Assembly (NCBI GenBank): GCA_963754015.1
Contig: CAVWEG010000004.1
Coordinates: 332,734-396,733, forward strand
Origin: Candidatus Dormiibacterota bacterium
Lineage (GTDB): Bacteria > Chloroflexota > Dormibacteria > Aeolococcales > Aeolococcaceae
DNA length: 64,000 nt
Direction: 5' to 3'
The translations under genes and the position numbers were made by a program. The notes beneath the pieces were generated by a model. The model made no database searches and was not told the origin of the DNA. It saw only the letters and a program-made list of their open reading frames with translations. Positions 289 to 26,338 of this stretch are shown in pieces. Each line of letters begins with the position of its first letter. The stretch's first letter is position 1.

Positions 289-822
289 TCAAAGCACCTC
301 AAACTTCATATACACCTTGCGCTGCTCAGTTGTCGCCCCACCGACATCGGCAAGTAAGGCGAGAAGTTGATTGAAATCGCCCTTCGACAGGTCGCACTCA
401 ACCGCCTCCCAGAGTGCCCGCCCTGTCGGAAGGACGGCCGGCGACTTTCGTAACAACCTCCGGCTGCTCTCCTGAAGGCGTTGCGGCGTTACACCTCCTC
501 GCATAAGCACGTCGCGGAGACTCAGGCTCATCTCCCGAAGGAAGGAGCGTTCATTCCTTGCCGCACGCTCCCCGGAATGCGTGAGCGTACCCTCGTCAGT
601 CAGAAGTCCAAGTCGTCCTGCCATGGCCACAGCACGAAGGACGGCCCGTCGGGATGGCTTGGACACGTAATCGTCGCTATCTGAGTCGTATTGAAGAGTG
701 AGGAATGACGGGTGTCGCCGTGCCAACACAACATCTGCAAGTGGCCCCTCCGCAGGTGACCGTCTGTCGGCGTCATCGAGGACGAGTCGAATCTTCGCGT
801 AAAGGGAGCGCTCGGACGTCAT
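289..822 (-). CDS. Hypothetical protein (177 aa), fourth gene of the SIR2/PRTase cassette
   Basis: ORF track. The start codon overlaps the stop of the upstream 403-aa ORF by 1 nt (TGATG), which suggests translational coupling. No recognisable motif. Confidence 0.45.
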   Translation of the reverse strand: MTSERSLYAKIRLVLDDADRRSPAEGPLADVVLARRHPSFLTLQYDSDSDDYVSKPSRRAVLRAVAMAGRLGLLTDEGTLTHSGERAARNERSFLREMSLSLRDVLMRGGVTPQRLQESSRRLLRKSPAVLPTGRALWEAVECDLSKGDFNQLLALLADVGGATTEQRKVYMKFEVL

Positions 823-2033
823 CAGATCTCGGCTATCCGTCGCACGTCACCTTCGAGCAACCGCAGCGCATCTGGCGGGACCTGCCCGTCGATGACCCAC
901 CAACTCAGGGCACGCGTGGTCCGGTCGAGTCCGAGCCGGTCGCTCGTCCGATCGACCTCCGCGTCCAACGCATGAGCTTCCTCCCCAGCGAGAGTGCCCA
1001 CCGTCTCAGCCTCGCACGCCCGAGTTATCGCAGTGGCCAGCGTAACCGCAGCTTCTCGTACCGGCATCATCTCTCTGGCATGGAGGATGCGCGCATCTGT
1101 CCAGATCTCCCGCTCGTGCACATGCAGGCGGTCGAAGATGAGCCGTTCTCCGCATCCTTCGGTGAGTTGATCGCTTATCGTCAGCCGCGCGCGCGCGTAA
1201 CGTTGCTCGTTATCAATGATCTTGCGCTGCAATTCGCCACGACTTCGATTCATCCGCCTCACGACAGTTAGATCGGGGCACGTGCCCGACTGACAGCCGC
1301 GCAGAAAGACGTTCCAGCAGCGTCGGATGAGCGTTTCGTGGTACTCGACCGCGCGAATCGTGCGCTCGACGTTCCCGTGTGTACCAAGAGCTCTCATGTC
1401 CTCCTCAGCGATGCCGTGCAAGGCATGGGCGAGAGGAACGATAATCCGCCGCGCCGAGGGACAGGCAGATAGAGCAGCCTCAGCATCAACTCTTGGGATG
1501 GTCGGGAGGATTCGCGTACGCGGATCGTTTGGCACCGGACCCTCCGGTTCGCGATGGGGTCTGATATCGAACATGACTCGCTCCGGGATAATCTCCTGGA
1601 TAGCAAAGGCAATATCTAAGACGTATCTGGTCGGCTCATCCCGCCGTCCCACAAGCGCCTGACCTGGCCCATACATGCCCTGTCGTTCTTCGAGCGGCAC
1701 AGGCAGATAGACATCTGCCTGGTCGACAAAGAGCTCGCGAGCAGCTCGTAGGGTGCGAGCGGCGACGTTGGCCAACTTATCGAAGGGAATGGCGGTCCGC
1801 CCTCCTGGGTCGAAGCCGTCCTCGCACCATCCGGCGAACAGAGCCTGCACAGTCGCCAAGAACCGGACGTGCTCCTGACCAACTAACCCCCTATCGCTAG
1901 CGTTGACGGCAAGTCTACGGACTATCCCCGCCACGGCCGGCACCGGAGGCAGATCAATGCCACGTGGATTCCGGCTCCAAGATTCCATGACGGCGCGTGA
2001 AGTCGCGAACCAAGTCGCTCGCGACCTCTCCAT
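822..2033 (-). CDS. Hypothetical protein (403 aa), third gene of the SIR2/PRTase cassette
   Basis: Long ORF co-oriented with and coupled to its neighbours. Its 5' end overlaps the PRTase ORF by about 80 nt, so the true start is probably internal or an indel joins or splits the pair. It has a weak Pol-beta-like stretch (GPGQALVGRRDEPTRYVLDIAF) that is insufficient for a nucleotidyltransferase call. Confidence 0.45.
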   Translation of the reverse strand: MERSRATWFATSRAVMESWSRNPRGIDLPPVPAVAGIVRRLAVNASDRGLVGQEHVRFLATVQALFAGWCEDGFDPGGRTAIPFDKLANVAARTLRAARELFVDQADVYLPVPLEERQGMYGPGQALVGRRDEPTRYVLDIAFAIQEIIPERVMFDIRPHREPEGPVPNDPRTRILPTIPRVDAEAALSACPSARRIIVPLAHALHGIAEEDMRALGTHGNVERTIRAVEYHETLIRRCWNVFLRGCQSGTCPDLTVVRRMNRSRGELQRKIIDNEQRYARARLTISDQLTEGCGERLIFDRLHVHEREIWTDARILHAREMMPVREAAVTLATAITRACEAETVGTLAGEEAHALDAEVDRTSDRLGLDRTTRALSWWVIDGQVPPDALRLLEGDVRRIAEI

Positions 2034-3486
2034 CAGGCAGATATGTCCGGCACACGACCTCAGCCGATTCGATCATCTGCACGCGCTCCACCTTCGTGAC
2101 GAGCATGGCCTCGTCGATGAGGACATCCATGCAAGAGCTCACTACCGCCTTCGGAAGCCCATTCGACCTGCCGATACTGGCGACTTCGCGCATGGTGATG
2201 CCTTGAGGGCTCTTTTCCCCGTACTTCTTGGCCTCAGTCCGCTCAGTAGCTCGTCGATCTGCAAGCCGCTCGATCTCTTGGAGCAGCGCCAAGGCGGCTG
2301 TTTCAAGGGCTTCGCGAGATGGATTATAGATGCGTCCTACCTGCCACCTACGGGCCCTAAGCCGCGTCCCCATAGCCTGAGCTCTCACCCATACATTCGA
2401 TAGTCGGCCGTGAAACGCAGTGAGATCTAAGGTCGGATACACCACGCTGAGGTGATTGAGGTCGTAGCGGCCGGCGTTCGGGATCGCCGGCTCTCCAGAA
2501 ACCTCTGGAAGATGCACCTCGCACACTTGGCCACGGGCGGCGCTGATGTCCCGCAAAGCCAGAAGGAGCGGATCTAAGGAGGCTCGCAAAGCCACTGCGT
2601 GAAAACGCGCCTCATCGTCGAGGCTAGCCCAATTTCCCAGTATCGACGATTCCCCTGGAGCCGGCTCCCACGATGCATCGACCTCACACGGAGTGTCAGG
2701 TAGGCAGATTGGAATGAGCGCAAACTCCCCTGGGAGTCGCTCCACGACGCGACACTTTCTGACCACGCCATCGGCTCGCGTTCCTGGTGGCAGTGCGGCA
2801 AGTTCCTCGTCCGGCATTTGCTTCCCGTAAAAAACCGTAAGATTTTTCCGATCGCCGCCCGAGTTAAACACCACGACTTCTCCAGAGCGGCTCAGTGCTT
2901 CTGCCAACCGACCTATCGGGGCTCTCAATCGCAGTCGCACTTCCACATGCTCCGTGTCGAGCATGAGCGAACCCGCGCGCTGCAGTGCCGTAACAAGGCG
3001 CGCTCGTGTCTGTCGGAACGCCTCCGTGGGAAGATGCTGAAGCCACGCAGCATCTGGAAAATGGGTAGTGTGGAATTCGTAGCCGGTACCCGCGTCTTCG
3101 TGCATGGCGAATGCGGCAACACGAACATTGCCAAGGGCATCGTCAGTTGCACCGACACTCCGAAGCTGTTCGAGAATGGTTCGCAGCGCATTGCCTTTCC
3201 GCACCATGTCATCCACGACGAGTAGCTTTGCCCCAGCAAGGCGATTCAAGGGAACCGAGCTTAGCGAGCTGCTCGAGACGACTTGTTCCCACGATGGAAT
3301 GCGCTGGGCTGGTTCGTTCGCGAGTGATTCCAGGACCGCACGGTAGATTGCAGTGCCCTTCCGCTCCGTGACAATGACAACATCTGGATGGAAGTCCGTG
3401 ACCTGTTGCACGATGAACTGGCGGAGCTGACGCAGCGTCATCTCGGGGGTTTGCTCCACGACGCCGGTCAGCGCGGCGAGAGTCAA
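1954..3486 (-). CDS. PRTase-domain protein (N-terminal type-I phosphoribosyltransferase-like fold plus a ~380-aa C-terminal region of unknown function)
   Basis: The N-terminal ~130 aa has a PRTase layout. HPDVVIVTERKGTAIYRAVL is followed by the hydrophobic-x4-DD signature AKLLVVDDMVRKGNAL (canonical VLLVDDVLTTGGT). The start overlaps the SIR2-like stop by 4 nt (ATGA). Confidence 0.55.
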   Translation of the reverse strand: MTLAALTGVVEQTPEMTLRQLRQFIVQQVTDFHPDVVIVTERKGTAIYRAVLESLANEPAQRIPSWEQVVSSSSLSSVPLNRLAGAKLLVVDDMVRKGNALRTILEQLRSVGATDDALGNVRVAAFAMHEDAGTGYEFHTTHFPDAAWLQHLPTEAFRQTRARLVTALQRAGSLMLDTEHVEVRLRLRAPIGRLAEALSRSGEVVVFNSGGDRKNLTVFYGKQMPDEELAALPPGTRADGVVRKCRVVERLPGEFALIPICLPDTPCEVDASWEPAPGESSILGNWASLDDEARFHAVALRASLDPLLLALRDISAARGQVCEVHLPEVSGEPAIPNAGRYDLNHLSVVYPTLDLTAFHGRLSNVWVRAQAMGTRLRARRWQVGRIYNPSREALETAALALLQEIERLADRRATERTEAKKYGEKSPQGITMREVASIGRSNGLPKAVVSSCMDVLIDEAMLVTKVERVQMIESAEVVCRTYLPDGEVASDLVRDFTRRHGILEPESTWH

Positions 3487-4547
3487 CTCACGACCCCAGA
3501 TCGAACGGGACCGAGCTCACGAAGAAACGCGTACGCGTCAGGGTCCTCTTGAAGATCAAGCACTTCGCGGAGCTTTCTCACCTTTGATGCCAACTCCGTG
3601 GGACTCCACCCATAGTACTGACCCAAGAGCTCAGCATCCTGCTCGTCGCGGACCCTGGGGAGCAACTCGCCGAGCTCGCGGAAGAAGTCATATGCGGTGA
3701 GCGGAATGTATTTGGCCCCGCGCATTTCCCAGATTGCGCGGTGGAGTCGATATTCGGCGCCGCTGCTGACGGGGTATGCAACGTATGTCCATTTGGAGTG
3801 ACCTTGACGTAGCCGTAGCCGCTCCCTGTACCTTGCGAAGAGGTGTCGGAAGTCTGGATCGGACATCGAGTAACCAACAAAACAGAAGACTCGCGAAAAG
3901 TACAGACGATCCATGAGAATCGCCTCGACGCTTCGGAAGGACGTTGAGGCGAGTGTCTCGTCCTCAGTCATCTGGAAGGTCTTGTCCACTAACCCGTGAA
4001 TATGCAACACGGGAATCCGTCCGTCGAGCAAGGCGGATTCGTAGTCGTTGGCGGTTTCCTCGGTGATCGGAAGCGCCGTCTCGCCAACGGCTTCTTCAAT
4101 AAGCAATTCAAGGTTCGTGGTGAAAATGCGTCGGATTACGATGTCGCCATCCCACTGCACAAGCTTGGCTAGTGCGGCGTGCGCCGGACTCTTGACGCCC
4201 GCCGGCGAAGGACGCATCAACACTTTCAGCTCATCTTGTAACGTGGCGCGTTTCGCTGGTAGATGCGCCTGAATCGCACCAATGATCACTTCGAAAGGCG
4301 CGGAGTTGGCTAAACGCGCGAGTTCGTCCTCTGAGATTCGGGCGCTGCCCGTGAACATATGTTTGCGGAGTAGCTCGCGCGCGACCGCACCTCCCGTGGG
4401 GACGCCAGCGTCGGCAGACATACCCGACCCCACGAGAAAATCCCCTTCCCCGCTCAGGATCTCCCTCGCGATCTCGGTGAGTTCCTGCTCGATCTCACCA
4501 ATCAGGACGTCACCCAGCGCAGATTTTAGATCCGCAAACGAAAGCAT
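3483..4547 (-). CDS. SIR2-like (SIR2_2/DUF4020-type) NAD-binding protein
   Basis: N-terminal Rossmann motif FLVGSGMSADAGVPTGG (compare sirtuin GAGIS..GIP). A HIHG motif lies at the expected catalytic His position and a FVGYSMSDPDF motif downstream. First gene of a four-gene coupled operon. Confidence 0.6.
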   Translation of the reverse strand: MLSFADLKSALGDVLIGEIEQELTEIAREILSGEGDFLVGSGMSADAGVPTGGAVARELLRKHMFTGSARISEDELARLANSAPFEVIIGAIQAHLPAKRATLQDELKVLMRPSPAGVKSPAHAALAKLVQWDGDIVIRRIFTTNLELLIEEAVGETALPITEETANDYESALLDGRIPVLHIHGLVDKTFQMTEDETLASTSFRSVEAILMDRLYFSRVFCFVGYSMSDPDFRHLFARYRERLRLRQGHSKWTYVAYPVSSGAEYRLHRAIWEMRGAKYIPLTAYDFFRELGELLPRVRDEQDAELLGQYYGWSPTELASKVRKLREVLDLQEDPDAYAFLRELGPVRSGVVS

Positions 4548-5559: not shown

Positions 5560-8398
5560 TTAGTCCTCGGCCAAAGCGGCGGCCGGCGCGACGTGCGATG
5601 CCCGCCAAGCTGGAATCGTAAGCACACCGCCGACCAGCCCCAGTCCAATAGCGGCCGCGAGCGCTGCCGCGGGTACCACCGAAAGCGCCGATCCCGTGAG
5701 GATCGCGGCGAGTCCCAGGCCGACCGCGCCCCCAGCTACAACGCCGACTATCCCGACCACCATCCCCTCGGTGAACGCGAGCCGGAAAAGCGTGGCCGGT
5801 CGCCAGCCCGTCGCGGCCAGCACAGCCTGCTCCCCAACGCGGTCGCGCAGGTTGACCGCCAGCACGTCGCCGACGCTGAACGCGCCGAGTAGCAACGCCA
5901 ACACCGCAGCGATAAGGTCAACGCCCCGAACCTGCACACTCACGACATCGCCAAGAGCCGTCCCCACCACCTCGCCTTGGAAGCCCAACTGGACCGCGAG
6001 CAACACCGCGAAGGCCGCGACTCCAATGAACAAACCGAGTGCGCCGCTGACCAGCCGTGCAGGGCGCCGCAGGAGGTTGGCCATCGCGATTCCAGACACG
6101 CGACGTACCGGCCGGTGACGGTGAACGCTTCCGACGATCGCATAGATCGCATCCAAGGGACGGCCGCGAGTCGCGACGTAAGCCGGCGCAAGGCCGGCGA
6201 CGCATGCGAGCGCAAACGCGATTGGGATGACCAAAAGTGCATGCCACCATGGCAACTCCAGATGCAGCGCCAGTGCGAGGATTTCGGCCAACCCTGCGCC
6301 GACCCCTCCGGCACTCAGACCGACCAAGGCAAGCTCCCCAAGGACGAGTCGGAAGAGTGCGGCTCGACCCCAGCCCAGACATGTCAGCACACCCAATTCA
6401 GTGCGTCGCGAGCGCACGCTCGCATAGGCACCGTTCGCGAGAAACAACACACAGACGACCAGCACCAGTACGAAGAGAACGAGGCTCTTTGCGTCCACCG
6501 CATTCAGCACCACCAGCGCCGCCCCTTTGCGAACCCAACCTTCGGCGACGGTCAGTGCCGGCTGGCCGCAACAGCCGGCGGGAACGTCAACATCCACGGT
6601 GGTTGGAGATGATCCGGCGGTGATATCTACCTGCAGCCCGGTGGCTTTCTTGATGGCCGTTGCGACCGCCAGGATCCGGGCCTGGTCGATAGCTTCGAAG
6701 CCGTGCACGTTGGCAATGCGGACTCGGATCGCACTGATTGGTGCAGCGGCGTCGGTGGGTGAGTATCGGGTGCAAAACGGCAATTGATGGTGCGGGTCGT
6801 TGATGTAGCACTGTTGCGAGAGCATCTGCTCCATCGCGGTCAGGGTCGTTAGAAGGAGTGGCGGTTGCGCCAAGTAGCCACCCAGGTTGGTGGTGGGACC
6901 CAGCGGCTGGTTCTTGAGCGCGTTCCGCGATGCCGGGTTTCCTCCCGTGACAACGGGAGGGTAGTACGTCTCGAGAGGTACGGCGCTCAGAGGATTGAAA
7001 CCGGGGAGCTTCTCCGGGTCGAACTGTCCGATCACCGACAAACGGACCGTCCCCGACGAGCCGAGTGTTGGGTTGTAGACGCCGTTGGCGTGGTGCACGG
7101 CGATCGCTTGGAATTGGGTGTCCTCGTTGCCTGGTGGCGCGGTGATGGGTCCTTCGCCGTCGTCGCGGGCGATCCACTCTGAGGGGGCGTTGACGGTCGT
7201 GGAAGGAGTGAGCATGCCACCACTATCCGTGTACGTGATCCCCGCCCCGGTCCAGTAGGCGTACACAAATCCGGGATCCGTAAACGCCCCAGTCGCGGAC
7301 AGCGTTGGGTGTTGCAGTTCGTCGAGGAGGGCGGTGTAGCCAGCTTGCGCCGAGAGTTGGGTGTGTTCGACGACCGACCCCGAAAGTCCGTGCAGAAAGG
7401 CTTCCACCGTAGCGGAGTTGCGATCCGCAAGCCGATCGACCGCGCTCACTCCTGGCGGAATGGTGAGTTGCTGCACATCGGCGGTGAGCGATTCGTCGAG
7501 ATAGGTGCGCGACGCCGCCATAACCGGCAGACCCGAGCTCTCCTCCACCGGACGCGACAACCCCTGCTGCTCCTGGAGGTAGTCACCAGACACGACCGTG
7601 TCCGGCAGTCCCACCAACTTCGCTTCCTGGACCGGATCGACTGCGGCGAGCAGCATCGGGAAGCTGAAGGTCACCAATGCGCCAGGAGCGGATTGAAGTC
7701 CGGCCGCTGCGGCCGAATTGATCGTGGGGGTGACGGCGGAGAAGCATGCGAGGTCGACCTCTCCCGCTGTGTCCAACCCTCCCGGCGGCCCGAAGGGTTG
7801 GAGCGAGGGACAGGTGATCGTTGGTTTCGCTTGTCCTGGCAGGACTTCTTCCACCAGGGCACCGCCATCCATGGGCACGAGAACGAAGCGGTCGGTAGGG
7901 GTGTAATAGACGTAGTACGTGCCCCCGGGATACGACGACAAGCCGTTGTCCGCCTTCCAGGTTGTGGTCACACGATACAACTGATGCGGGTTAGTGTTGC
8001 TGGCAGGGTTGACCGGAACCACGACCGTGGCTTCGGGGATCACATAACCGATGTTGGCAATCGGAGCTGCGACGGAAACACCGGGAAGAGAGAGGATCTT
8101 CTGCCACTGTGCCTGCGTGATCCCGCCAAAGGTATCGGCGAGGTAGTTGTCCCGGACCAGGTTGTCTTGGGTCTCGATAGCGTTGGCGCTGCCTTTTGGG
8201 CGGACGAGGATGTCATAAGCTGGCCGTGCGGCGGCATCGACCGTGCCGTGGACGGCAAGTTGAACTCGTTGAAGCCGCGGCGGTGAGCAGCGAGAAACTC
8301 ACGGATGCGACGACGATGCCGGCACCCAAGGCCAGGAGGCGGTCAATGCGAGACCGCACCTGTTGAACGATGACCCCTCCTAGGCGAAAGCGAACCAC
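5560..8398 (-). CDS. MacB/FtsX-family ABC permease with a very large (~480 aa) extracytoplasmic domain. An apparent frameshift near 8213-8295 separates TM1 from the remainder.
   Basis: The C-terminal three to four TM helices are FtsX-like. The main frame stays open upstream of 8043 (AYDILVRPKGSANAIETQDNLVRDNYL...). The N-terminal TM1 (VQQVRSRIDRLLALGAGIVVASVSFSLL) sits in a different frame (8213-8398, with a GTG at 8398). Confidence 0.7.
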
Positions 8399-8568
8399 TC
8401 CACCATCATGGACCGCTGCACAGGAGCGGTCTAGGGCCAAACGCCGGGGCCGCCAGATGGACAGGAGCAACGTGGATCGATGGGCCGATCTCCGGTCCGA
8501 CCTGCACTTGACACGCGCCGCGGATGCTGGTATGACGGTCGCGATCAGGAAAAACATCTGGAGGGCAT

Positions 8569-8757
8569 GTGATGTTGGGACGCCTCGCCGATCGGATGGT
8601 GTCAAAGCTCCTACCCCACGCCCACGCGAGCGCCCAATGCACGCCGTTCTGTACCCCAAACGATGCTTGTGGATGCACCTGTGGGGGGACGAACTGTCAT
8701 CGCAACGTGTTCTCGAATTGCCACATCACCTGCTTGTGCCCGGCCGCGTGCCCGTAG
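8569..8757 (+). CDS. Cys-rich small peptide (62 aa, 10 Cys in the C-terminal 39 aa), putative secreted disulfide-rich peptide or RiPP-like precursor
   Basis: GGAGGG lies 6-7 nt upstream of ATG 8572 (GTG at 8569). Sequence MMLGRLADRMVSKLLPHAHA|SAQCTPFCTPNDACGCTCGGTNCHRNVFSNCHITCLCPAACP. Immediately followed by MauE-like, thioredoxin-like, ABC exporter and S26 peptidase genes. Confidence 0.45.
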   Translation: MMLGRLADRMVSKLLPHAHASAQCTPFCTPNDACGCTCGGTNCHRNVFSNCHITCLCPAACP

Positions 8758-8851
8758 TCGGGGCTGACGCACAACTTCACTGACGGGTAGCTTGAGGCTG
8801 GTCGCAAATCACCGCCTCAGGTAAGCGGGCTGCAGATCTGGAGGCGCGGCT

Positions 8852-9382
8852 TTGGCGTACGTCGTACTGTGCTGCCGTTTGCTGCTCGGCGCAACATTCG
8901 TCGCATCGCTGGCAACCAAACTCCGGTCTCGCGCGACGCTGCACGAGTTCTTGGCCGCTGCGGGAGCCCTGCTGCGGAGTGACTCGCCCTTGGTCCGCTT
9001 GCTCGCCGTAACCTCGATTGCCACCGAACTCTTGATTGTGATCACACTGCTGATCCCAGCGTTGGTTACCGCAGGGTTCGCGCTGACCGCTCTGTTGCTG
9101 CTCGTCTATACGCTGGCCATCGCCCGGGCATTGCAGCACGGGGTGACGACGCCGTGCCGCTGCATCGGAACCTCGAGTGATCCGCTCCATTCGTGGTTGA
9201 TCCTCCGCAATGCAGTCCTGTTCACCGTGTCAATCGTCGGTATTGCGACATCCTTGGCAGGCAGCCCGGCAGTCGGGTTCACGACCGCGCTGGCAGTCTC
9301 CGTGGCGATCGCCATCTTCGGCCTCGCCCTCGTGATGTCATTCGACGACCTCGTGTACCTTGCGCGCCGGAACCCGATGTGA
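8852..9382 (+). CDS. MauE/DoxX-family membrane protein (disulfide-bond formation accessory)
   Basis: 176 aa with four predicted TM helices and a CxC (TPCRCIG) in a loop. Sits where mauE sits relative to the mauD-like thioredoxin. Confidence 0.55.
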   Translation: MAYVVLCCRLLLGATFVASLATKLRSRATLHEFLAAAGALLRSDSPLVRLLAVTSIATELLIVITLLIPALVTAGFALTALLLLVYTLAIARALQHGVTTPCRCIGTSSDPLHSWLILRNAVLFTVSIVGIATSLAGSPAVGFTTALAVSVAIAIFGLALVMSFDDLVYLARRNPM

Positions 9383-9535
9383 CCGTCGGGAGTTTCGCGC
9401 TCGCATCCGTGGCGGTGGCGATCAGCCTCGTCAACCTCCTCCTAATCCTCGGGATCGTGCGCCGAATGCGCCAGATGGAACCGATGGTTCCGGCCGCATA
9501 TTTCGAAATCGAGTTCGGGTCCCGCGCCCGGCTCC

Positions 9536-9934
9536 GTGCTCCCGGAGTTCAATGCGCGAACGACCAGCGGGCAGCAGGCACACGGCTCAGCACTCGCAAC
9601 AAACCACGGGCTCATGGCTTTTCTCTCGGTGGGTTGTAGCGCGTGCCATGAGCAGATCCCGCTGCTCAACGCTTACGTAGCCCGCGAGCGCCTCGATCCC
9701 GACCATGCCTTGATTGTGGTGAGCGGTGACCCCGACGGACGGAGCGAATACGCGCAACAGGCCGCGTCATTTGCTCATGTCGTTGTCGAAGCGGCGAACG
9801 GCCCTCTCACCCGAATCTTTGATATCAAGGCGTTCCCGACGGTGCTCGCCCTGCACGACGGCCGAGTCCAAGCGAACGCCCCCAGTGTGAACGCGCTCCA
9901 CCATGAGACGGCGCGCTCGCGCGCGGGGAGCTGA
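9536..9934 (+). CDS. Thioredoxin-fold thiol:disulfide oxidoreductase (MauD/TlpA/redoxin-like)
   Basis: Contains FLSVGCSACHEQIPLL (WCxxC-type active site) and an upstream LPEF...G strand pattern. A TM helix that could serve as the membrane anchor is encoded in another frame just upstream (9380-9530), so an N-terminal frameshift is possible. Confidence 0.55.
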   Translation: MLPEFNARTTSGQQAHGSALATNHGLMAFLSVGCSACHEQIPLLNAYVARERLDPDHALIVVSGDPDGRSEYAQQAASFAHVVVEAANGPLTRIFDIKAFPTVLALHDGRVQANAPSVNALHHETARSRAGS

Positions 9935-9946
9935 ATCGAAGCGGAT

Positions 9947-11785
9947 GTGACCCCGCTGAGGCCGTTGCGGGAGCGGGTGCTGTTTGCCTGTCGCCTGTGT
10001 GCGAAAGCAGGAAAGTTTCGTCTCCTTGCGATGCTGTTGACCAGCATCGCACAGGGCCTTGTTCCCGTCGCGTACGCGTTGCTCACCCGCACGCTCATTG
10101 ACGCGCTCGTCGCCGATCAACGGTCGGCTGCGATTGCCGCGCTGGTCGGAATCGCGATTACCTCAGCAGCGCTCATCGTCCTGCCTTCACTCAGCCACTA
10201 CGTGGGCGCCGACGTGGACCGCCGACTTGAGGTCGACCTCCAAGCTGAACTCTTTGGCGCCGTGGCCGCGCTACCAAGTCTTCGCTTTCTGGAAAGCCCA
10301 CCTTTTCTCGACCGTGTTCGCCTGGCGCAGCAAGCAGCGCTGACAGGCCCAGCTCAATTGATCGGCGGCGGTTTCGCCTTCGTGCAAGGCGCGACTACCC
10401 TGGTCGGGTTCGTTGCTACCCTCCTGGCGCTCGATCCGTGGATCGCTATCCTCCTCGCCGCCAGCGCGCTTCCGATGGTGGTGGCGGAGATGCGGCTTGG
10501 CGCCTCGCGCGCAGCGGCCCGACTTCGGGGTACCCCGTTTCGTCGGCAGAGCCTCGCCTACACGTCCAGCATGATCGACGCCAACGTCGCCCAGGAGATC
10601 CAACTCTTCGGTATCGGCAGCTTCCTGCGCGACAAGCTGGTGCACGCGCTTCGAGGAGCCACTGACATTGAGAGGCGTCAGGATCGCCATGAGCTGTGGG
10701 TCCGTGCCCTGCTCGGCGTCCTCGCCGCGGTCGCCGCCGCAGCCAGTCTGGGCCTGATTGTCGTCGGCGCGCTGCAGCATCGGTTCAACGTTGGTGATGT
10801 GGCAATAGTCCTCGCCGCCATGTCCGCATTGCAGTTGACGTTCACGTCCCTCACGACCCAACTCGGCCAGATGGCCGAGGTGCTGCGCCTCCTTGATCAC
10901 TATCAGACCGTGCTCGAAACGGCTGCGCACCGCGAACCTCAGACGGCCGCAAATCCGACACGTCGTGAGGTTCCGGTTGTGCACCGTGGTATCGAGATGC
11001 GCGACGTCTGGTTCCGCTACGAGGAGGGTCAGCCGTGGGTATTACAGGGGGTCAACCTCACCATCCCCGCCCATGGCGCACTCGCGCTTGTCGGCCCAAA
11101 CGGCGCTGGCAAGACCACGATTGCGAAACTCCTCTGCCGCTTCTACGACCCAACCCATGGCGAGGTGCTCTGGGATGGGATCAACATCCGCGAGTTCCCA
11201 ATGGACGAGCTGCGGCGCCACATTGGCATCGTGCTGCAAGATCCGGTCACGTACGATTTGACGGCCGCCGAGAACATCGGCGTGGGCAGCCTCGGCCGTC
11301 TTCGAAATCAGCCGGCGATCGAAGCGGCGGCCGCCATGACCAGCCTCCATGACATCTTGCGAGCGCTCCCTCGTGGGTACGAGACACTGCTGAGTCGCCT
11401 CTACTTTGACGAGCGCAGCGACGACCCCGGCCTGCTGCTTTCGGTAGGGCAACAGCAACGGCTGGCACTTGCTCGCGCCCTACTCCGCGCAGAGGCTCAG
11501 TTACTCGTCCTTGATGAACCCACTGCGGCGCTCGACCCCCAGGCGGAAGCCGCAATCCATGAGCGCCTCCGCGATCTCCGTCATGGCCGATCGAGCCTGC
11601 TCATCTCGCACCGCCTCAGCACCACCCGCGACGCCGACTGCATCGCGGTGCTCAGTGCAGGTCGCGTCGTCGAGTCAGGCAACCATCAGGAGCTAATGAG
11701 CCTGGGAGGTCTCTACGCGCGGTTATTCACCGTACAGGCCGCGGGTTACGCCGAGCAGCCGGCTCCCCTGACCGCAAACGGGTGA
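9947..11785 (+). CDS. ABC transporter, fused permease/ATP-binding exporter (612 aa)
   Basis: Six-TM N-terminal domain, then Walker A GPNGAGKTT, signature LSVGQQQRLALARALL and Walker B LLVLDEPT. Confidence 0.85.
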   Translation: MTPLRPLRERVLFACRLCAKAGKFRLLAMLLTSIAQGLVPVAYALLTRTLIDALVADQRSAAIAALVGIAITSAALIVLPSLSHYVGADVDRRLEVDLQAELFGAVAALPSLRFLESPPFLDRVRLAQQAALTGPAQLIGGGFAFVQGATTLVGFVATLLALDPWIAILLAASALPMVVAEMRLGASRAAARLRGTPFRRQSLAYTSSMIDANVAQEIQLFGIGSFLRDKLVHALRGATDIERRQDRHELWVRALLGVLAAVAAAASLGLIVVGALQHRFNVGDVAIVLAAMSALQLTFTSLTTQLGQMAEVLRLLDHYQTVLETAAHREPQTAANPTRREVPVVHRGIEMRDVWFRYEEGQPWVLQGVNLTIPAHGALALVGPNGAGKTTIAKLLCRFYDPTHGEVLWDGINIREFPMDELRRHIGIVLQDPVTYDLTAAENIGVGSLGRLRNQPAIEAAAAMTSLHDILRALPRGYETLLSRLYFDERSDDPGLLLSVGQQQRLALARALLRAEAQLLVLDEPTAALDPQAEAAIHERLRDLRHGRSSLLISHRLSTTRDADCIAVLSAGRVVESGNHQELMSLGGLYARLFTVQAAGYAEQPAPLTANG

Positions 11786-18851: not shown

Positions 18852-19401
18852 CTATGTAGCGCACGACCAGGCCAGCCAGGTACTCTCGCTCTTCAGTTGT
18901 GAGGGCGCGGCCCTTCGGGATATCGTGCCAGTACGCGATGCAGGTGCGGCAACACGACGCGGTCGCATGTTGAGCGTAGTACAGAACATTGCCGTCGAAC
19001 GGTGTCTGGCGACCATCGTTTCGGGGGCTCTCTGCACCCACTGACATCTCGATGCGACGCGAGGCAGCCAGAAACAAGGTCGATCGGCCCTTGCGCAGCG
19101 CGTGATTTCTCGCCCGCTCGTCGAACTCGAGGTGCCAGAAGTGATGGCGAATCAGTTCCTGGCGGAGTTCGGTAAAGGTGTGGTCGACGTCCTCAAGACG
19201 GCGCTCGTGTACGCGAGGCCAATCGACCAGACGGGCATAGCAAACACGGCACGCGCCGCCCAGGCCTGCATCAAGGAGTTTCTTGCTGCTCTTGAAGCAA
19301 TGCAAATCGTTGTCACAGTCGGTGCTCGTGCAACTGATTGCCAGCTTGGGTAGCGACGGAGGGGCCTCTGGAGCTGCCATCACGCTACCATCGCCTGACA
19401 A
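18772..19401 (-). CDS. Hypothetical protein (209 aa) with Cys-containing motifs (CTSTDC...LHC; ATASCCRTC)
   Basis: ORF track. Directly upstream of, and overlapping, the radical-SAM ORF. No confident family assignment. Confidence 0.35.
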   Translation of the reverse strand: MSGDGSVMAAPEAPPSLPKLAISCTSTDCDNDLHCFKSSKKLLDAGLGGACRVCYARLVDWPRVHERRLEDVDHTFTELRQELIRHHFWHLEFDERARNHALRKGRSTLFLAASRRIEMSVGAESPRNDGRQTPFDGNVLYYAQHATASCCRTCIAYWHDIPKGRALTTEEREYLAGLVVRYIDDRWPDLPEGPTHVPYRTQAHITSND

Positions 19402-20796
19402 AGCAGATCGCGGTCCAGTGGATTGAGTGATGCGAGGTCAGCGCGCTCAAGGAGCGCATCGCGACTGGCCTCCCACGGATCCGGTCCCGATGATTGCAGA
19501 TTCGCCGCTGCACCCCACCAATTGATGCCTTGCATCGATAGACGAAATGCAAGGTAATTCGCCACGGCGCCGGTATCAACGCGCTCTGCTGCTGCGATAT
19601 TCGGTACCACACTCTTGAGACGCTCGACGCTTCCTCGGGCTCCGTCGACGCAAAGTTGGACAATGGCTTCGGCACGTCCATCGAGCAAGACATCGCCTGC
19701 AAAGCGATTCGCCATCTGCTCCGAATCGTCAGGGCTCGCCTCGTCTCCGTCAATGATGGAGCCGTCGCGATCTCCGAGGTCCAGTGTTACGTGCCCAATT
19801 TCATGGAGGAGATCGAACATCCAACGCGAGGCACTGCGATGGCCCTGTTTGAGTACGACCACCTCACGAGTATCGACGCGCCATACCGCGGCATGAAAAG
19901 CGCCGGGGTCGGCGAGTGGAAGGACGGGAATACCAAGATCCCACACGAACCGTAGCAAGTCGCCGAAACTGCCGGTCGACCCACGCTGCTGCCACGAAGT
20001 ACGAAAGGCCGACGCATGGGCAGGCACAAGCTGTTTCGGGAGGTCCTGAGTTGCGTGGAGCGTGACCAAGGCAAGGTAGTGAGCGTAGACCGTGTAGGCT
20101 TCGGCTTTCTCCTTGTCGCTGCCCTTAGGCAACTTGAAACTGGTACTTGCAAGCACTCGTCGATCCGGCTCTAAGGGCTCGCCGGAAAGGAGCGAACCAG
20201 TCTCCCATCCAAACACTCTGCCAACGCGTGAAGCGAAGTTGATGAGAGTCCCCGCATCGCCGGCGCCGCCCAGCCCATCTCGAAGTGCAGCAGGGGCAAG
20301 GCGGCGGCGTACGAAGGCTAAGCCCAGTCCCATCTCGCTCAGCCGCTGGGCCACTGCCCTACTCGTGGGCAGGGCATCGGGAAGCTCTAGACCTTGCACG
20401 TCGAGTTCCGCTGCGACCTCACGCAATCGACTCAGGCTCGCTGACGCGTATTGCGTCGCCTCATATCGCTGAATCTGCTGCTCCTTGAGACCAAGACGGT
20501 CTGCGAGCTGTCGCTGACTGAGTTCCTGCCGCGATGCGTGCACGAACAAGAAGCCGAGGGAGATCGTCGACAGTGGATAGGACTCCAACCGGGGCGCGCC
20601 CCTGGCGAAGATCATCGTATTCGCGGAGTTGAGCGCGCAGTTCGTCAACCTGACCCTCGACGGCATCGATCTCGAGTTGACGGCGGAGCTCACCCTCTGC
20701 GGCTTCCAGCGGGCGCTGTTGAACATCCTTGAGCAGCGACGCGAGGCGATCAGCCTGTGCCTTCGCAGTCCGGTACTGGACATCGTTGGTGATCAT
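19380..20796 (-). CDS. Coiled-coil/HTH-XRE/ImmA-IrrE zinc-metallopeptidase fusion, with an apparent 1-bp frameshift near 20523
   Basis: Helix 1 of the HTH (DDLPRLLVRARIAAG) lies in the frame of the 111-aa ORF. It continues as LSQRQLADRLGLKEQQIQRYE in the frame of the 467-aa ORF, with the junction at a ggaactc homopolymer. HEIGH zinc motif (LLHEIGHVTLD). Confidence 0.65.
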
Positions 20797-21381
20797 CTAC
20801 ATCAACTCCTTCAAGCTGATCGCCACGATCCCTTTAGCCCCGCCCGTGGCCTTGTCCTTTTGAAAGAAGTCCACGAGGGGTGCGCCACTCGAGGCCTCGA
20901 TTACGTTCGGCAAGATGTCTCCGCGATACAGCGCCTGCTGGGCGGCCCGCGGCGGGCGAACATCTCGGAGGACAGGGGTGAGCAGTGAAATCGTCACGCC
21001 GCCCATCTCCCAGCACACGTCGTAGTCATTCGGCACCCCTTTGTCTGTGACGAAACTGCCGTCAAGATAGACCCGCTCACATCCAGCCTCCCCGAGGTGC
21101 TCAAGCGCCAAGCGAAGCCCGCGAAGCTGTTCGATCCGGTGCGTGGTACCCCCGAAGCGAGTCGCGACCTCGTCCCACTTTGCGTCGTGGATTCCCGGTG
21201 GTAGCAGGCCTCGGCGGTCGTAGTCGGGAATCATGACCACAACTATAACGTTGTGGTCATGAGAACGCAAGCTCTCGGCCAACTCGACCGATTGACCAAA
21301 TCCGCCGACGTTGAACGGCGGACGACCGACCATCGAGATCCGCTGAGCGTCCTGATGCCGGGGCACGCGCGCAAATGCCAT
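20797..21381 (-). CDS. Nucleotidyltransferase-fold protein (putative)
   Basis: YLDGSFVTDKGVPNDYDVCW resembles the minimal-NTase hG[GS]x9-13Dh[DE]h motif. Immediately upstream of the HTH-ImmA gene. Confidence 0.35.
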   Translation of the reverse strand: MAFARVPRHQDAQRISMVGRPPFNVGGFGQSVELAESLRSHDHNVIVVVMIPDYDRRGLLPPGIHDAKWDEVATRFGGTTHRIEQLRGLRLALEHLGEAGCERVYLDGSFVTDKGVPNDYDVCWEMGGVTISLLTPVLRDVRPPRAAQQALYRGDILPNVIEASSGAPLVDFFQKDKATGGAKGIVAISLKELM

Positions 21382-22503: not shown

Positions 22504-23811
22504 TCACGTTCTTGACCGCTCGTTGATCCAGGACTCATATCGGTCGTAGACATATCGCGGCGAGCTCAGTCCCAGCGCCGAAGAAACCTCCTGAATCCCC
22601 GCTCCACCGCGCAGCATGGTCACAGCCGCCGTGTCGCGAAGGTCTTGAAACGTATAGACAGGGATGTGGACCGATCTGCAGCGTTCGCGCAGCCGTTGGC
22701 TCATCTCGCTGCTCTGATACGGCTTGCCGGAGCGAGCCGCAACCACCAGCTCCAGATCGCCTGGTGCACTCGGCACCTGTCTCCGTATCTGCGCAGCCCG
22801 GCTGCGTTGCAGCGCTTCGAGAACCTCGGTCGTCAGCTGCAGACGCCGCGCCTGGCCGGCTTTGAGCGGCACCGACTGGGTTCCGTAGCGAGTGCTGTCG
22901 TTGTCGCCGGGCTCGAGTGTGCGAATCAACTTACTCCTCACCTCGATAGCCCGCTCCTCGACGAGGACGCGGCTCCAGCGCAGGTCGAGAATTTCACCCA
23001 GATCCATCCCCGTCCGAAGCGCGAGCAGGCAGGCCGCGTTGAGCTGGGGATCGCGGAGCCCAAGGAGGCGTTGTTCGTCCCCGGGCTCGAGAAGGCGAAC
23101 CGCGACCGTCGCCGGGGCCGGCCACGTGTAGTGCCCCGCCGCCGGGTTCCCGGCAAGCAAACCAGCATCCATTGCAGCTTGGAGCGCGGCGTGCAAGGTC
23201 GCGTGACACCGCTTGGCTGTCCCGCCACTCATGCCCTTAGCCAGCAGATGCACGTAGCCCTCCCGCACCCGAGGAGCACGCAGGCCGAGTAGGACCTCAT
23301 CGCCAAACTCGGGGATGAGGTGCAAGCGAACGCTCTCTTCGTAGCGATGCCAGGAGCGCGAATCCAGATCCGGTTTGCGCAGTTCGAGCCACTTCCCGAG
23401 CCAGTGCGCGACGCTCGGGTTTCCACGCCCAGTTGCATCGAGTAAGTGTTGTTCTGCCTCATCGGCTGTTGCCCCCGTGACCGAGACTCGCTTACCTGTC
23501 GCTTGGTCGACGCCTCGGGCGCGCCACGTCCCTCCCTCGATCGCTGGGGGAGTAACCGTGCCCTGGCCTCGAGGTCGGTGCGCGCGGGTCGCCGCGACAA
23601 GAGCGGGAGCCGAATGGTTCTCCGCCGCCATCGCCGCGGCAATCTTCGGCTCCAGCTCCTCCTTCGTCGGGGCATAGATATCCCGGCGGACCTTCCGCCC
23701 AGTACTGTCGACGGCCCAGTAGCGTCCCCGCCAGAGGCCGTCCGGTCGCGGCTTGGTATCCAGCGACGGTGGACGCCGAGGCAAAGCAGACATGGTGGGC
23801 GAGCTTAGCAA
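22504..23811 (-). CDS. Tyrosine-type site-specific recombinase (phage integrase family)
   Basis: C-terminal catalytic region ...TFQDLRDTAAVTMLRGGAGIQEVSSALGLSSPRYVYDRY (R-H/D-R-Y pattern with terminal Tyr). Adjacent to the tRNA 3' end. Confidence 0.85.
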   Translation of the reverse strand: MLSSPTMSALPRRPPSLDTKPRPDGLWRGRYWAVDSTGRKVRRDIYAPTKEELEPKIAAAMAAENHSAPALVAATRAHRPRGQGTVTPPAIEGGTWRARGVDQATGKRVSVTGATADEAEQHLLDATGRGNPSVAHWLGKWLELRKPDLDSRSWHRYEESVRLHLIPEFGDEVLLGLRAPRVREGYVHLLAKGMSGGTAKRCHATLHAALQAAMDAGLLAGNPAAGHYTWPAPATVAVRLLEPGDEQRLLGLRDPQLNAACLLALRTGMDLGEILDLRWSRVLVEERAIEVRSKLIRTLEPGDNDSTRYGTQSVPLKAGQARRLQLTTEVLEALQRSRAAQIRRQVPSAPGDLELVVAARSGKPYQSSEMSQRLRERCRSVHIPVYTFQDLRDTAAVTMLRGGAGIQEVSSALGLSSPRYVYDRYESWINERSRT

Positions 23812-24034
23812 AACTGGGGTAAAAGTGGGGTAAAAAAGGCGTTCAAAACGCTACGGCGAATCCGGAGCATGTATCATCTCGGTAGATATGGACTCGATAT
23901 GGACTCTGAGCTGGGGTACAGACCCCTCCAGCCACTCCTTTGACCCTAATCTGACCCTAATGTGGGGTGGGCGCTACTGGGCACTGGCGGGCACTGGCGT
24001 ATTCGGATTGACCGACACTGAGATCAAAAGACGC
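23812..24034. repeat. AT-rich att-site arm region with four pairs of short tandem direct repeats
   Basis: Seen directly: ggggtaaaaGTggggtaaaa, atatggactcGatatggactc, tgaccctaatCtgaccctaat, gggcactggcgggcactggcg. Lies between the integrase start and the tRNA-Ser 3' end. Confidence 0.45.
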
Positions 24035-24123
24035 GGAGCGAGAGGGATTCGAACCCTCGATACCAGTTTCCCGGTATACCGCATTTCCAATGCGGCGCCC
24101 TCGGCCAACTAGGCGATCGCTCC
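24035..24123 (-). tRNA. tRNA-Ser (anticodon GGA)
   Basis: Hand-folded reverse complement: acceptor GGAGCGA/TCGCTCC; anticodon stem CCGCA/TGCGG with loop TTGGAAA; long variable arm; T-arm GAGGG-TTCGAAT-CCCTC. No encoded CCA. Confidence 0.85.
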
Positions 24124-24248
24124 TCAGCGATTGTATCCGCGCCTACGCGGCCAGCCCCGCGCCGGGACGCCTCAGTGCGTTTCGGCGACAATGACCGCAG
24201 GGTATCTACGTCTCTAGCTACTCATCGCCTCAGGGGGTAACCCACACC

Positions 24249-24404
24249 ATGTGTGTCCTGTTCGCCTTTCTGCTATTCACCGTCCTCCTCTTCGGGCTCG
24301 GCTTCGCCCTGCACGTGCTCTGGTGGATCGCGCTGATTTTCCTGATCTTCTGGCTGATCGGCCTTGCCTTCCGGCCGCGCGGGGGGCGCTGGTACTACTG
24401 GTAG
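24249..24404 (+). CDS. Small hydrophobic membrane protein (51 aa, W/Y-rich C-terminus)
   Basis: AGGGGG lies ~10 nt upstream of the ATG. MCVLFAFLLFTVLLFGLGFALHVLWWIALIFLIFWLIGLAFRPRGGRWYYW. Sits between two tRNA-Ser genes. Confidence 0.4.
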   Translation: MCVLFAFLLFTVLLFGLGFALHVLWWIALIFLIFWLIGLAFRPRGGRWYYW

Positions 24405-24457
24405 GGCTCGGCTGACGCCGGGTCTGCTCCAGGCTCGCCCGTATACTCGACGCTCCC

Positions 24458-24546
<89 letters not shown>

Positions 24547-24566
24547 AATCGGGCGCCGCGCCTAGC

Positions 24567-25310
24567 TCACCCGGATACTCGCCATACCGCCGTCGACCGC
24601 AAGGATCGTTCCCGTCGTCGATCGCGGACAGCGGGACTCGCGAGGTAGGCGATCGCAAAGGCGATCTCATCGGCGGTGACCAGCCGGCCCATCGGCTGGC
24701 GAGCTCGCAAAGCTGCGGCCGCCGCTGCCGGATCGGACGCCTGGTCGAGCAGCCGTCCTACCCACGGCGTGTCTGCCGTGCCGGGAGTGACAGCGTTGAC
24801 CCGGATGCCCTGCTTGACATGGTCCGCGGCCATCGCGAGCGTCAACGCATGTACCGCGCCCTTGCTCGCGGAATAGAGCGCGCGTTGTGGCACGCCGACC
24901 CTGGCGACCGCAGAGCACGTGTTGACGATGGCTGCATGGCTTGACTGCAGCAGCAACGGCAGCGCCGCCCGCGTCATGCGCGCGATCCCGATCACGTTGA
25001 CGTCGAGAACGCGTTGCCACTCCGCGTCGTCGTTCTGCGTCGCGTCGCCGACCGCACCAATACCCGCGTTGTTGACGAGGATGTCGAGGCCTCCGAGTCT
25101 CTCTGCGACGGTCGCGACGGCTGCGTCGACACTGGCCGAATCGGAGACCTCGCAAGGGACTTCGAGCATCGTGGTTTCCGCGACTGCGGTATAGGAGCGA
25201 TCGAGCAGCGCAACTCGCGCGCCGCGGTCGCGAAGCTGCACCGCCGTCGCCGCGCCGATGCCGCTGGCACCACCGGTGACGACTGCGACCAGTCCGTCGA
25301 AGTCATTCAT
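24567..25310 (-). CDS. Short-chain dehydrogenase/reductase (SDR)
   Basis: VAVVTGGASGIGAATA cofactor motif. Start trimmed to MNDFDGL to remove the overlap with the ADH gene. Confidence 0.8.
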   Translation of the reverse strand: MNDFDGLVAVVTGGASGIGAATAVQLRDRGARVALLDRSYTAVAETTMLEVPCEVSDSASVDAAVATVAERLGGLDILVNNAGIGAVGDATQNDDAEWQRVLDVNVIGIARMTRAALPLLLQSSHAAIVNTCSAVARVGVPQRALYSASKGAVHALTLAMAADHVKQGIRVNAVTPGTADTPWVGRLLDQASDPAAAAAALRARQPMGRLVTADEIAFAIAYLASPAVRDRRRERSLRSTAVWRVSG

Positions 25311-25324
25311 GTCGCTGCTCCCGT

Positions 25325-26338
25325 CTACAGACGTGGGTCGATGTGGATCTTCGGGCCACTGGGCTCGGTGTCGGGACGCCATCCGGACAGCACATCGCCA
25401 ACATGATCGAGGCCGACCGTCGCAGCAATCAGCGTCCTGGGATCAACGGACCCGCCGGCATAATGCTCGATCGTTCCAGTGAGCGCCTGCGACGCCCCGA
25501 GAACCCCCACAGCCGTGACGTCCTTCAACGCCATCGTGCGCGTGTCGATGAGGCTCGGGGTTCCGGCAAGTCCGACATACACGACCCGTTTGCCAGGTTC
25601 GACGAGGTCGAGCGCGAGCGCCGGAAGCGCTGCCGCATTGGAGCAGTCGATGACCGCATGCCATGGGAGCGACGGCAGTTCGTCCTGCAGCCAAGTACCC
25701 GCGTAGCCGCGTGCACGAGTGAACTGGAGTGCGTCGACCGAACGGCCCATGAGGTGAACTTCGACACCGGCGGCTCGCGCGAACTCGGCAGCAAGCAGTC
25801 CCATCGTGCCGGTGCCGAGGATCAGCACGCGATCCCCGTCGGACAGCGCGGCGCCCCATACGGCACGCAGCGCGTTCCCGCCGGGCTCGACCATCGCTCC
25901 TGCGGCGTCATCGACACTGTCGGGAAGCGGCACCAGCGCGCTTGCCGGCACCGCGAGTCGTTCCGCCAGTGCACCCGGAAAGGTGCCCCGGACGCCGAGC
26001 TCGCTGCGGGTCTCGCACACGTGATGACGACCGGAGCGGCACCGATCGCAGTGCCCGCACCCGATCATCGTGTCCCCGACCACGCGCCGCCCGAGCCACG
26101 ACGCGTCGACCCCCTCCCCGAGCGCAGCGACGACGCCGCACCATTCGTGCCCGAGACGCATGGGGTAGTGCGATATCCCCTGGTGCAGGTAGGCCATCTC
26201 ACCCGTCCAGAACTCCATGTCCGTCCCGCACACACCGACGCGATGAATCTCGACGACAACCTCGCCCACACGCGCAGCCGCATCGGGGACCTCTTGCACA
26301 CCACCCTCGTGTGGCGCCGTCACGACGTACGCCTTCAT
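25325..26338 (-). CDS. Zinc-dependent alcohol dehydrogenase (MDR family)
   Basis: GVCGTDMEFW zinc-ligand motif and a GxGxxG Rossmann motif (ILGTGTMGLLAAEFA). Start trimmed to MKAYVV. Confidence 0.8.
   Translation of the reverse strand: MKAYVVTAPHEGGVQEVPDAAARVGEVVVEIHRVGVCGTDMEFWTGEMAYLHQGISHYPMRLGHEWCGVVAALGEGVDASWLGRRVVGDTMIGCGHCDRCRSGRHHVCETRSELGVRGTFPGALAERLAVPASALVPLPDSVDDAAGAMVEPGGNALRAVWGAALSDGDRVLILGTGTMGLLAAEFARAAGVEVHLMGRSVDALQFTRARGYAGTWLQDELPSLPWHAVIDCSNAAALPALALDLVEPGKRVVYVGLAGTPSLIDTRTMALKDVTAVGVLGASQALTGTIEHYAGGSVDPRTLIAATVGLDHVGDVLSGWRPDTEPSGPKIHIDPRL

Follow-up and report, generated by a model that had tools for sequence, protein, structure and literature searches.

The 64-kb stretch of DNA analysed here, referred to as the window, belongs to a metagenome-assembled genome (MAG) of Candidatus Dormibacterota, an uncultured soil phylum, and carries a gene for a tyrosine recombinase (integrase) at the 3' end of a tRNA-Ser(GGA) gene. 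The original prediction, made from this DNA, regarded the tRNA gene as the right boundary of a genomic island of at least 24 kb. The integrase open reading frame (ORF) lies on the same strand as the tRNA-Ser(GGA) gene and immediately downstream of its 3' end, and ARAGORN, Rfam, Pfam and PHROGs bore out this predicted arrangement. The ORF covers positions 22504-23811 from a TTG start codon and 22504-23793 from an ATG start codon; the latter version is 429 aa long and identical to the database protein P0001, located on a 939,566-bp contig. The spacer between the tRNA and the integrase gene is 221 bp long with the TTG as the start codon and 239 bp long with the ATG, so that the length of 223 bp given initially needed a small correction. 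The locus contains the following features.

24458-24546: tRNA-Ser(CGA), divergent from tRNA-Ser(GGA) (ARAGORN, confirmed by Rfam)
24033/24034-24123, minus strand: tRNA-Ser(GGA), intact, the putative integration target (attB-derived) (ARAGORN; Rfam tRNA model, 56.9 bits)
24032-24033: chromosome/island junction, the outer limit of island DNA
23794-24032: AT-rich arm from the tRNA to the integrase gene, comparable to the int-proximal P' arm of attL (guanine-cytosine (GC) content 53-54%, repeats)
22504-23793, minus strand: tyrosine-recombinase (integrase) ORF, 429 aa, full length (Pfam, PHROGs, alignments, AlphaFold2, Foldseek)

A scan of a genome collection with the exact 89-nt tRNA sequence identified two contigs from Candidatus Dormibacterota MAGs, termed L001 and L002. 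The 150-kb contig L002 is 92.7% identical to window positions 24509-25501 and 96.3% identical to positions 24033-24546. Beyond the tRNA 3' end, no similarity between L002 and the window was detected, and L002 has no integrase there. L002 therefore offers the empty tRNA-Ser site for which a comparison had been proposed, with similarity to the window stopping at the tRNA. About 100 bp past its tRNA, L002 contains genes for an aldo-keto reductase, protocatechuate-dioxygenase subunits, a GntR regulator and an ABC binding protein. L001 is 84% identical and encodes a different integrase N-terminus after the same tRNA. The three-way alignment of L002, the window and L001 is identical through the whole tRNA to the discriminator base and diverges right after it, the similarity to L002 stopping one base past the discriminator. 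At the junction the window reads ...CTCGCTCCGC followed by GTCTTTT, and L002 reads ...CTCGCTCCGC followed by CATGTGATG. The sequence after the discriminator is CCA-TGTGATG... in L002, CGT-CTTTT... in the window and GAT-TTCC... in L001.

The last base that the tRNA-Ser(GGA) gene of the window has in common with the unoccupied relative is 24033, and its 3' segment (...GGGTTCGAATCCCTCTCGCTCCG on the tRNA strand) does not encode the terminal CCA. The CCA is encoded in the tRNA-Ser(GGA) gene of L002 as well as in the other three tRNA genes of the window, whereas it is not encoded in the tRNA-Ser(GGA) genes of the window and L001, both of which adjoin an integrase. Because the CCA is kept in the unoccupied L002 and missing from both integrase-associated genes, the extreme 3' end of the tRNA-Ser(GGA) gene in the window appears to be derived from the element. 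The lost CCA is direct evidence for an element-derived 3' end, as expected after integration into the 3' segment of a tRNA gene.

The composition of the DNA changes at the same place. The GC content is 61.6% for positions 1-22503 and 66.6% for positions 24124-64000. In tetranucleotide usage, all six 4-kb blocks on the left correlate with the profile of the right part at r = 0.88-0.93, whereas the right-hand blocks reach 0.95-0.985, with a small circularity as the reference profile contains the right-hand blocks themselves. Both the GC and the tetranucleotide shift set in at about 24 kb and persist back to position 1, and the left part is distinct from the core genome in composition as well as in gene content. 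The composition profile of the first 24 kb against the rest, another comparison that the original prediction had suggested, thus returned a switch at the boundary. Together with the unoccupied L002 and the lost CCA, this switch supports the view that the island is bounded on the right by the tRNA and extends over at least 24 kb, and the shifted composition and the accessory gene content agree with the assignment of the left side as cargo.

The spacer itself has a GC content of 53.4%, as opposed to 65.5% within the integrase gene and 66.6% across the right flank, and only 0.06% of the 230-bp windows in the whole 64 kb are as AT-rich, in line with the AT-richness noted earlier. We scanned the whole 64 kb for adjacent duplications with a period of 10-12 and at most one mismatch and found five tandem pairs in total, four of which lie in a 190-bp part of the spacer. 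All four pairs described in the original prediction were present, and their accumulation in the spacer is far beyond chance. The repeats and the neighbouring hairpin are as follows, with distances counted from the tRNA end.

23979-23998: R4, two copies of GGGCACTGGC, period 10, perfect; 35-54 nt; candidate arm-type site
23941-23962: R3, TGACCCTAATC/TGACCCTAATG, period 11, then TGGGGT at 23963-23968; 71-92 nt; candidate arm-type site
23885-23906: R2, two copies of GATATGGACTC, period 11, perfect, then TGGGGT at 23912-23917; 127-148 nt; candidate arm-type site
23839-23851, minus strand: terminator-like hairpin GCGTTTTGAACGC with a T tract, between the tRNA and the integrase gene (consensus match only)
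23810-23831: R1, AAAACTGGGGT/AAAAGTGGGGT; 202-223 nt; candidate arm-type site and/or integrase operator

On the integrase strand, R1 corresponds to two copies of ACCCCAnTTTT, which are located just downstream of the terminator-like hairpin and end 16 nt upstream of the integrase ATG. One strand of the spacer contains the hexamer TGGGGT four times, compared with about 0.1 copies expected from its frequency across the window. A consensus shared by the four pairs was sought by eye and rejected: there is just a weak likeness (ACCCnAnT, CCAGT), and the fourfold TGGGGT is the sole clear common element. Tandem pairs are also found beside other integrase genes. In L001, two copies of TACCCCAACGn lie between tRNA-Ser(GGA) and the integrase gene, forming an 11-bp tandem pair that has ACCCCA in common with R1. 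Two copies of GCCCAAATGTT follow a tRNA-Glu ahead of an integrase gene (L004), two copies of TCGTACCGCCA lie upstream of an integrase gene (L003), and five GTAC-containing repeats of about 8 bp precede another (L012), against a background density of about one such tandem pair per 7-8 kb in these loci. In phage lambda and mycobacteriophage L5, the P' arm (P'1-P'3) of the former and the paired arm sites of the latter provide tandem direct-repeat sites in the int-proximal arm. By analogy, the spacer pairs are most likely arm-type binding sites for the N-terminal domains of the integrase, and R1 may double as an operator of the integrase gene. The differing sequences of the four pairs may be tied to the duplicated arm-binding domain described below or to other DNA-binding proteins. 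An Rfam scan of the spacer found no known RNA family, the only matches being to the tRNAs. Elsewhere in the window, two TGGGGTA motifs 40 nt apart were noticed at 8612-8658 on the minus strand, in a gap of about 800 bp between the genes for an FtsX permease and a MauE-like protein; one of them extends to an 11-nt match to the spacer, TGGGGTACAGA, probably by chance.

The integrase belongs to the tyrosine recombinases by both sequence and fold. It matches PF00589 (Phage_integrase) with an E-value of 4e-11 and 43.4 bits, above the curated cut-off of 27.1, and phrog_1 'integrase' with an E-value of 2e-37. The match to PF14659 (N-terminal SAM-like) scores 21.6 bits (E-value 2.6e-4), just below the 22.6-bit cut-off, and the core-binding region aligns with 2kkp, a solved N-terminal domain of an integrase, at an E-value of 1.5e-12. 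Among 1.84 billion representative proteins, the nearest non-self relative is 34% identical (E-value 1e-33). The domains are arranged as follows.

Residues ~17-60 (23614-23745, minus strand): arm-binding domain 1
Residues ~79-121 (23431-23559, minus strand): arm-binding domain 2
Residues 128-209: core-binding domain
Residues 237-428: catalytic domain

The AlphaFold2 model (predicted local distance difference test (pLDDT) score 87.6) contains two beta-beta(-beta)-alpha modules at residues 21-60 and 79-121, followed by the core-binding and catalytic domains, and the best structural matches in Foldseek were the Tn1549 and lambda integrases with a probability of 1.0. The N-terminal arm-binding fold, a three-stranded sheet and a helix, is thus present in the model. 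The model and a family hidden Markov model (HMM), which matches the N-terminus of the integrase twice, suggest that the arm-binding domain is duplicated, and BLASTP between the two domains detected no internal similarity. Among the best 150 matches listed, P0013 is the only protein that covers both arm-binding domains; it has the same double layout and a canonical active site.

To describe the active site, we aligned the window protein with its 91 nearest homologues (alignment A2) and counted the residues at each catalytic position.

Arg I: R in 91/91 homologues; D264 in the window (GAT, 23002-23004), TGMDLGE versus TGMRxGE
Hairpin Lys: K in 90/91; L310 in the window, with K311 adjacent (displaced by one residue)
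His I: H in 91/91; Q383 in the window (CAA, 22645-22647), FQDLRD versus FHDLRH
Arg II: R in 90/91; R386 in the window, kept (22636-22638)
His II: H in 91/91; L409 in the window (CTG, 22567-22569), LGLSS versus LGHSS
Tyr nucleophile: Y in 90/91; Y419 in the window, kept (22537-22539)

Three of the six residues that make up the catalytic pentad R-K-H-R-H/W and the tyrosine are therefore gone. The codons of D264, Q383 and L409 were checked in the raw sequence, and D264 and L409 each require more than one nucleotide change from the consensus. In a profile alignment, the Arg I column of the family aligns with R225 of the Tn1549 integrase, a position occupied by K in the Protein Data Bank chain labelled R225K. 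The window protein misses 7 of the 35 highly conserved columns, as compared with a mean of 1.5 among the homologues, and all seven fall into catalytic motifs. Besides Arg I, His I and His II, conserved neighbours in the active site are changed (H387D, T415V and H421S). R260 might be considered as a substitute for Arg I; this residue is also present in 6 of the 91 homologues, which retain Arg I. The RKHRH pentad is described as strictly conserved outside IntCTnDOT and IntDes, which depart from it as whole subgroups (PMC8138268).

In view of the established roles of Arg I, His I and His II, we infer from the sequence that the integrase, a structurally intact tyrosine recombinase, has very probably lost catalysis. 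The original prediction had set the possibility of a degenerate fragment lacking the catalytic residues against its own reading, and this possibility turned out to apply in part: Arg I, His I and His II are missing, whereas the protein is full length. The missing residues argue against present mobility of the island, not against its origin by integration.

Taken as a whole, an island at tRNA-Ser(GGA) with a since-inactivated integrase is a probable account of the locus. An element with a lambda/Tn916-type arm-binding tyrosine integrase would have entered the chromosomal tRNA-Ser(GGA) gene at its 3' end by site-specific recombination between a tRNA 3' segment borne by the element and the tRNA gene. 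The event would have rebuilt a functional tRNA with its extreme 3' end from the element, with loss of the encoded CCA, and would have placed the integrase gene and the int-proximal AT-rich arm with its four repeat pairs directly downstream of the tRNA. Island DNA would then run from 24032 leftwards to at least position 1, with accessory and defence-type cargo. Later, Arg I would have been replaced by Asp, His I by Gln and His II by Leu, while the fold, the DNA-binding domains, Arg II, the hairpin Lys and the tyrosine were kept. The integrase would most likely be unable to cleave DNA, leaving the island fixed unless a related integrase acts in trans.

Several observations weigh against this account or limit it. 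Each of the four repeat pairs has a sequence of its own, an uncommon finding for the arm sites of a single integrase. Within the window we found neither a repeat of the tRNA 3' end, the only matches being at chance level (13 nt or shorter), nor any stretch matching the displaced native flank of L002; the search for a second attachment (att) site used a 30-mer with up to three mismatches, short-word BLAST of the spacer and the tRNA, and the native L002 flank. A scan of viral contigs with the tRNA 3' 30-mer also gave no matches. Because no distal repeat of the tRNA 3' end lies in the window, the figure of 24 kb sets a minimum for the extent and rests on composition, and the left end of the island is either beyond position 1 or eroded. 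In addition, the genes beside the tRNA in L002 are not neighbours of this tRNA in other relatives: five contigs (L006-L010) have the same reductase/dioxygenase cluster with no tRNA nearby, and the only homologue of the L002 reductase on the contig taken as that of the window is 72% identical. Because the L002 flank is not a universal neighbour of the tRNA, the comparison does not demonstrate a simple insertion between the tRNA and an L002-type flank; rather, the alignments suggest that the junction on the 3' side of the tRNA varies within this lineage. These last points would also suit a locus without any island, namely an assembly chimera joined at the identical 91-nt tRNA, or left genes that are ancestral with L002 being rearranged. 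The source is a MAG, at least three populations share the tRNA with 100% identity, and a neighbouring gene differs from L002 by two single-base indels, a hint at an imperfect assembly. However, the integrase sits exactly at the tRNA 3' end and is followed by a repeat-rich arm, which is the junction expected biologically and recurs in the same layout in L001; an assembly extending over a 939,566-bp contig is presumably unlikely to have been confused by a 91-nt repeat; and even in a chimera, the left part would represent an element bounded by an integrase at this tRNA in the genome it came from. We regard the absence of an island as very improbable.

Two further possibilities accept the island and concern its integrase. 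The enzyme could still be active through a remodelled active site, with R260 or R272 replacing Arg I in a manner like CTnDOT or IntDes, so that the island would be mobile. The ORF is intact and the fold confidently predicted, and the tyrosine nucleophile, Arg II and a hairpin Lys are kept. Active recombinases with non-canonical pentads do exist, and IntCTnDOT and IntDes show that Arg I may be absent or displaced and His I replaced (PMC8138268). The repeat pairs, perfect or one base off, moreover suggest ongoing constraint. Nevertheless, three pentad positions are changed together, with an acidic Asp at the position of the phosphate-binding Arg; the occurrence of R260 in homologues with Arg I speaks against a specific compensation; H387, T415 and H421 are lost too; and no excisionase was detected with Pfam or PHROGs. 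Continued activity is therefore unlikely in our judgement. Alternatively, the integrase might have been exapted as a non-catalytic DNA-binding pseudo-recombinase that binds the four tandem repeat pairs through its arm- and core-binding domains. Possible roles include repression of its own promoter, organisation of the tRNA-proximal region, locking of the defence island, and blocking the integration or excision of related elements. In favour of such a function, the losses at conserved positions are confined to catalytic motifs with the 28 other conserved positions kept in an intact ORF, the ACCCCA pair has an operator-like place 16 nt from the start codon and downstream of the terminator-like hairpin, and both arm-binding domains are modelled confidently. 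However, the nearest homologue, at 34% identity, is too distant for a test of purifying selection, the losses are enriched in the catalytic hexad at no more than modest significance in a post hoc assessment, and a recent inactivation without any new function fits the same data. We thus consider exaptation a rather doubtful explanation.

In enterobacteria, islands with P4-like integrases are located at tRNA genes. The island resembles these and other lambda-type tRNA islands such as pathogenicity island-2 of Vibrio (VPI-2), which is integrated at a tRNA-Ser (PMC3014918), in that the integrase lies downstream of a tRNA 3' end with a break of synteny, an atypical composition and accessory or defence cargo. 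Unlike VPI-2 and the P4-like islands, it resides in a Candidatus Dormibacterota host and has an integrase without three pentad residues, a second att repeat was not found in the window, and neither an excisionase nor a directionality factor was found. The integrase shares the order of arm-binding, core-binding and catalytic domains with the integrases of lambda, L5 and Tn916/Tn1549, and tandem repeats lie in the int-proximal arm as in lambda and L5. It differs from the lambda, L5 and Tn916/Tn1549 integrases in having two tandem arm-binding domains and four different pair sequences, in being at most 34% identical to any known integrase, and in the substitution of Arg I, His I and His II. In the IntCTnDOT subgroup, Arg I is absent and another Arg acts in its place, and in the IntDes subgroup Arg I is shifted and His I replaced by Tyr (PMC8138268). 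Like these, the window integrase departs from RKHRH at Arg I and His I. Unlike these subgroup-wide traits, however, the changes set the window protein alone against 91 of 91 relatives, the residue at Arg I is acidic, and His II is lost as well. The changes in the active site thus look like decay, not like a family trait.

The left part of the window is filled with the cargo of the putative island, as listed below.

1-22503: island cargo, mosaic, left end not reached (Pfam, PADLOC, composition, no match to the L002 flank)
289-4547, minus strand: SIR2/PRTase-like four-gene cassette (Pfam, PADLOC)
~4.8-13 kb: ABC/FtsX transporters, a MauE-like protein and small ORFs
~13.8-19.4 kb: P-loop kinase-like genes, a radical-SAM fragment and DUF4186
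19380-20783, minus strand: HTH-ImmA/IrrE protein (metallopeptidase) with RmrA-like matches
20797-21381, minus strand: DUF6932 protein, 194 aa, with a weak PADLOC match to PDC-M63A

The cassette encodes a SIR2_2 protein of 354 aa with ThsA/Dsr1-like PADLOC matches, a PRTase-like protein of 510 aa and two proteins of unknown type (403 and 177 aa). PADLOC returned no system-level match for it. For the leftmost long ORF, only one homologue (56% identity) was present among 5.8 billion proteins; on the contig of this homologue, an unrelated JGI soil contig (L011), the four genes recur in the same order and sizes (7409-11679) beside a TIR/metallophosphatase gene. From its sequence, the cassette is a candidate defence system. 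Next to the integrase, a module at 19380-21381 on the minus strand combines DUF6932, a 111-aa ORF and the HTH-ImmA/IrrE metallopeptidase, and it resembles modules of a regulatory or abortive-infection type. Between 21.4 and 22.5 kb, neither an excisionase nor another gene was recognised by Pfam or PHROGs. The prophage remnant proposed as one option in the original prediction found no support: among about 35 ORFs searched with Pfam, PHROGs and PADLOC, there was no phage structural or lysis gene and no conjugation, replication or excisionase gene, with only 24 kb of the element visible. The 24 kb gave no nucleotide match to 50,697 phage and 72,556 plasmid records, and the family HMM found no other recombinase among the six-frame ORFs of the window.

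Some observations concern the DNA around the tRNA genes in the window and its relatives. The hairpin TGTGATGTCTCAAGACATCGTG was noticed at L002 2920-2945 and L005 1554-1577, each time right behind the encoded CCA of a different tRNA gene. When the native flank of L002 was used in a metagenome scan, the one match was this same hairpin behind a different tRNA, and it was rejected as a distal junction. The TGTGATGTCTCAAGACATCGTG hairpin is possibly a lineage-specific post-tRNA terminator or processing element of Dormibacterota-like contigs. L002 also contains a degenerate 38-nt copy of the tRNA-Ser(CGA) 3' end (966-1004), which together with the true tRNA (2404-2492) flanks a 1.4-kb segment with a major facilitator superfamily (MFS) transporter gene. 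This segment is missing from the window (24546-24567). Its appearance is that of an insertion remnant at the second tRNA-Ser, for which the window would represent the empty site. Because a remnant insertion is thus also suggested at tRNA-Ser(CGA), both genes of the divergent tRNA-Ser pair would be insertion hotspots. Adjacent to this site, the short-chain dehydrogenase gene at 24567-25382 on the minus strand has two single-base insertions relative to L002 at 24567-24700. They shift the frame of the C-terminus and remove the conserved ...TGTILAVDGGM motif, indicating either a real pseudogene or indel errors of the assembly.

The junction of an island integrated at a tRNA gene is textbook knowledge. 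What is new here is the exact junction with its lost CCA, the organism, and a probably dead yet intact integrase with two arm-binding domains. The locus provides a cleanly mapped integration junction in the poorly studied Candidatus Dormibacterota, and this junction delimits a block of at least 24 kb of foreign composition with candidate defence and peptide-export genes. It also carries a practical warning, as a match to PF00589 alone would lead annotation pipelines to call this island mobile, wrongly if the integrase is inactive as we infer. If DNA binding is indeed the reason for its retention, the protein would represent a domesticated tyrosine recombinase from bacteria.

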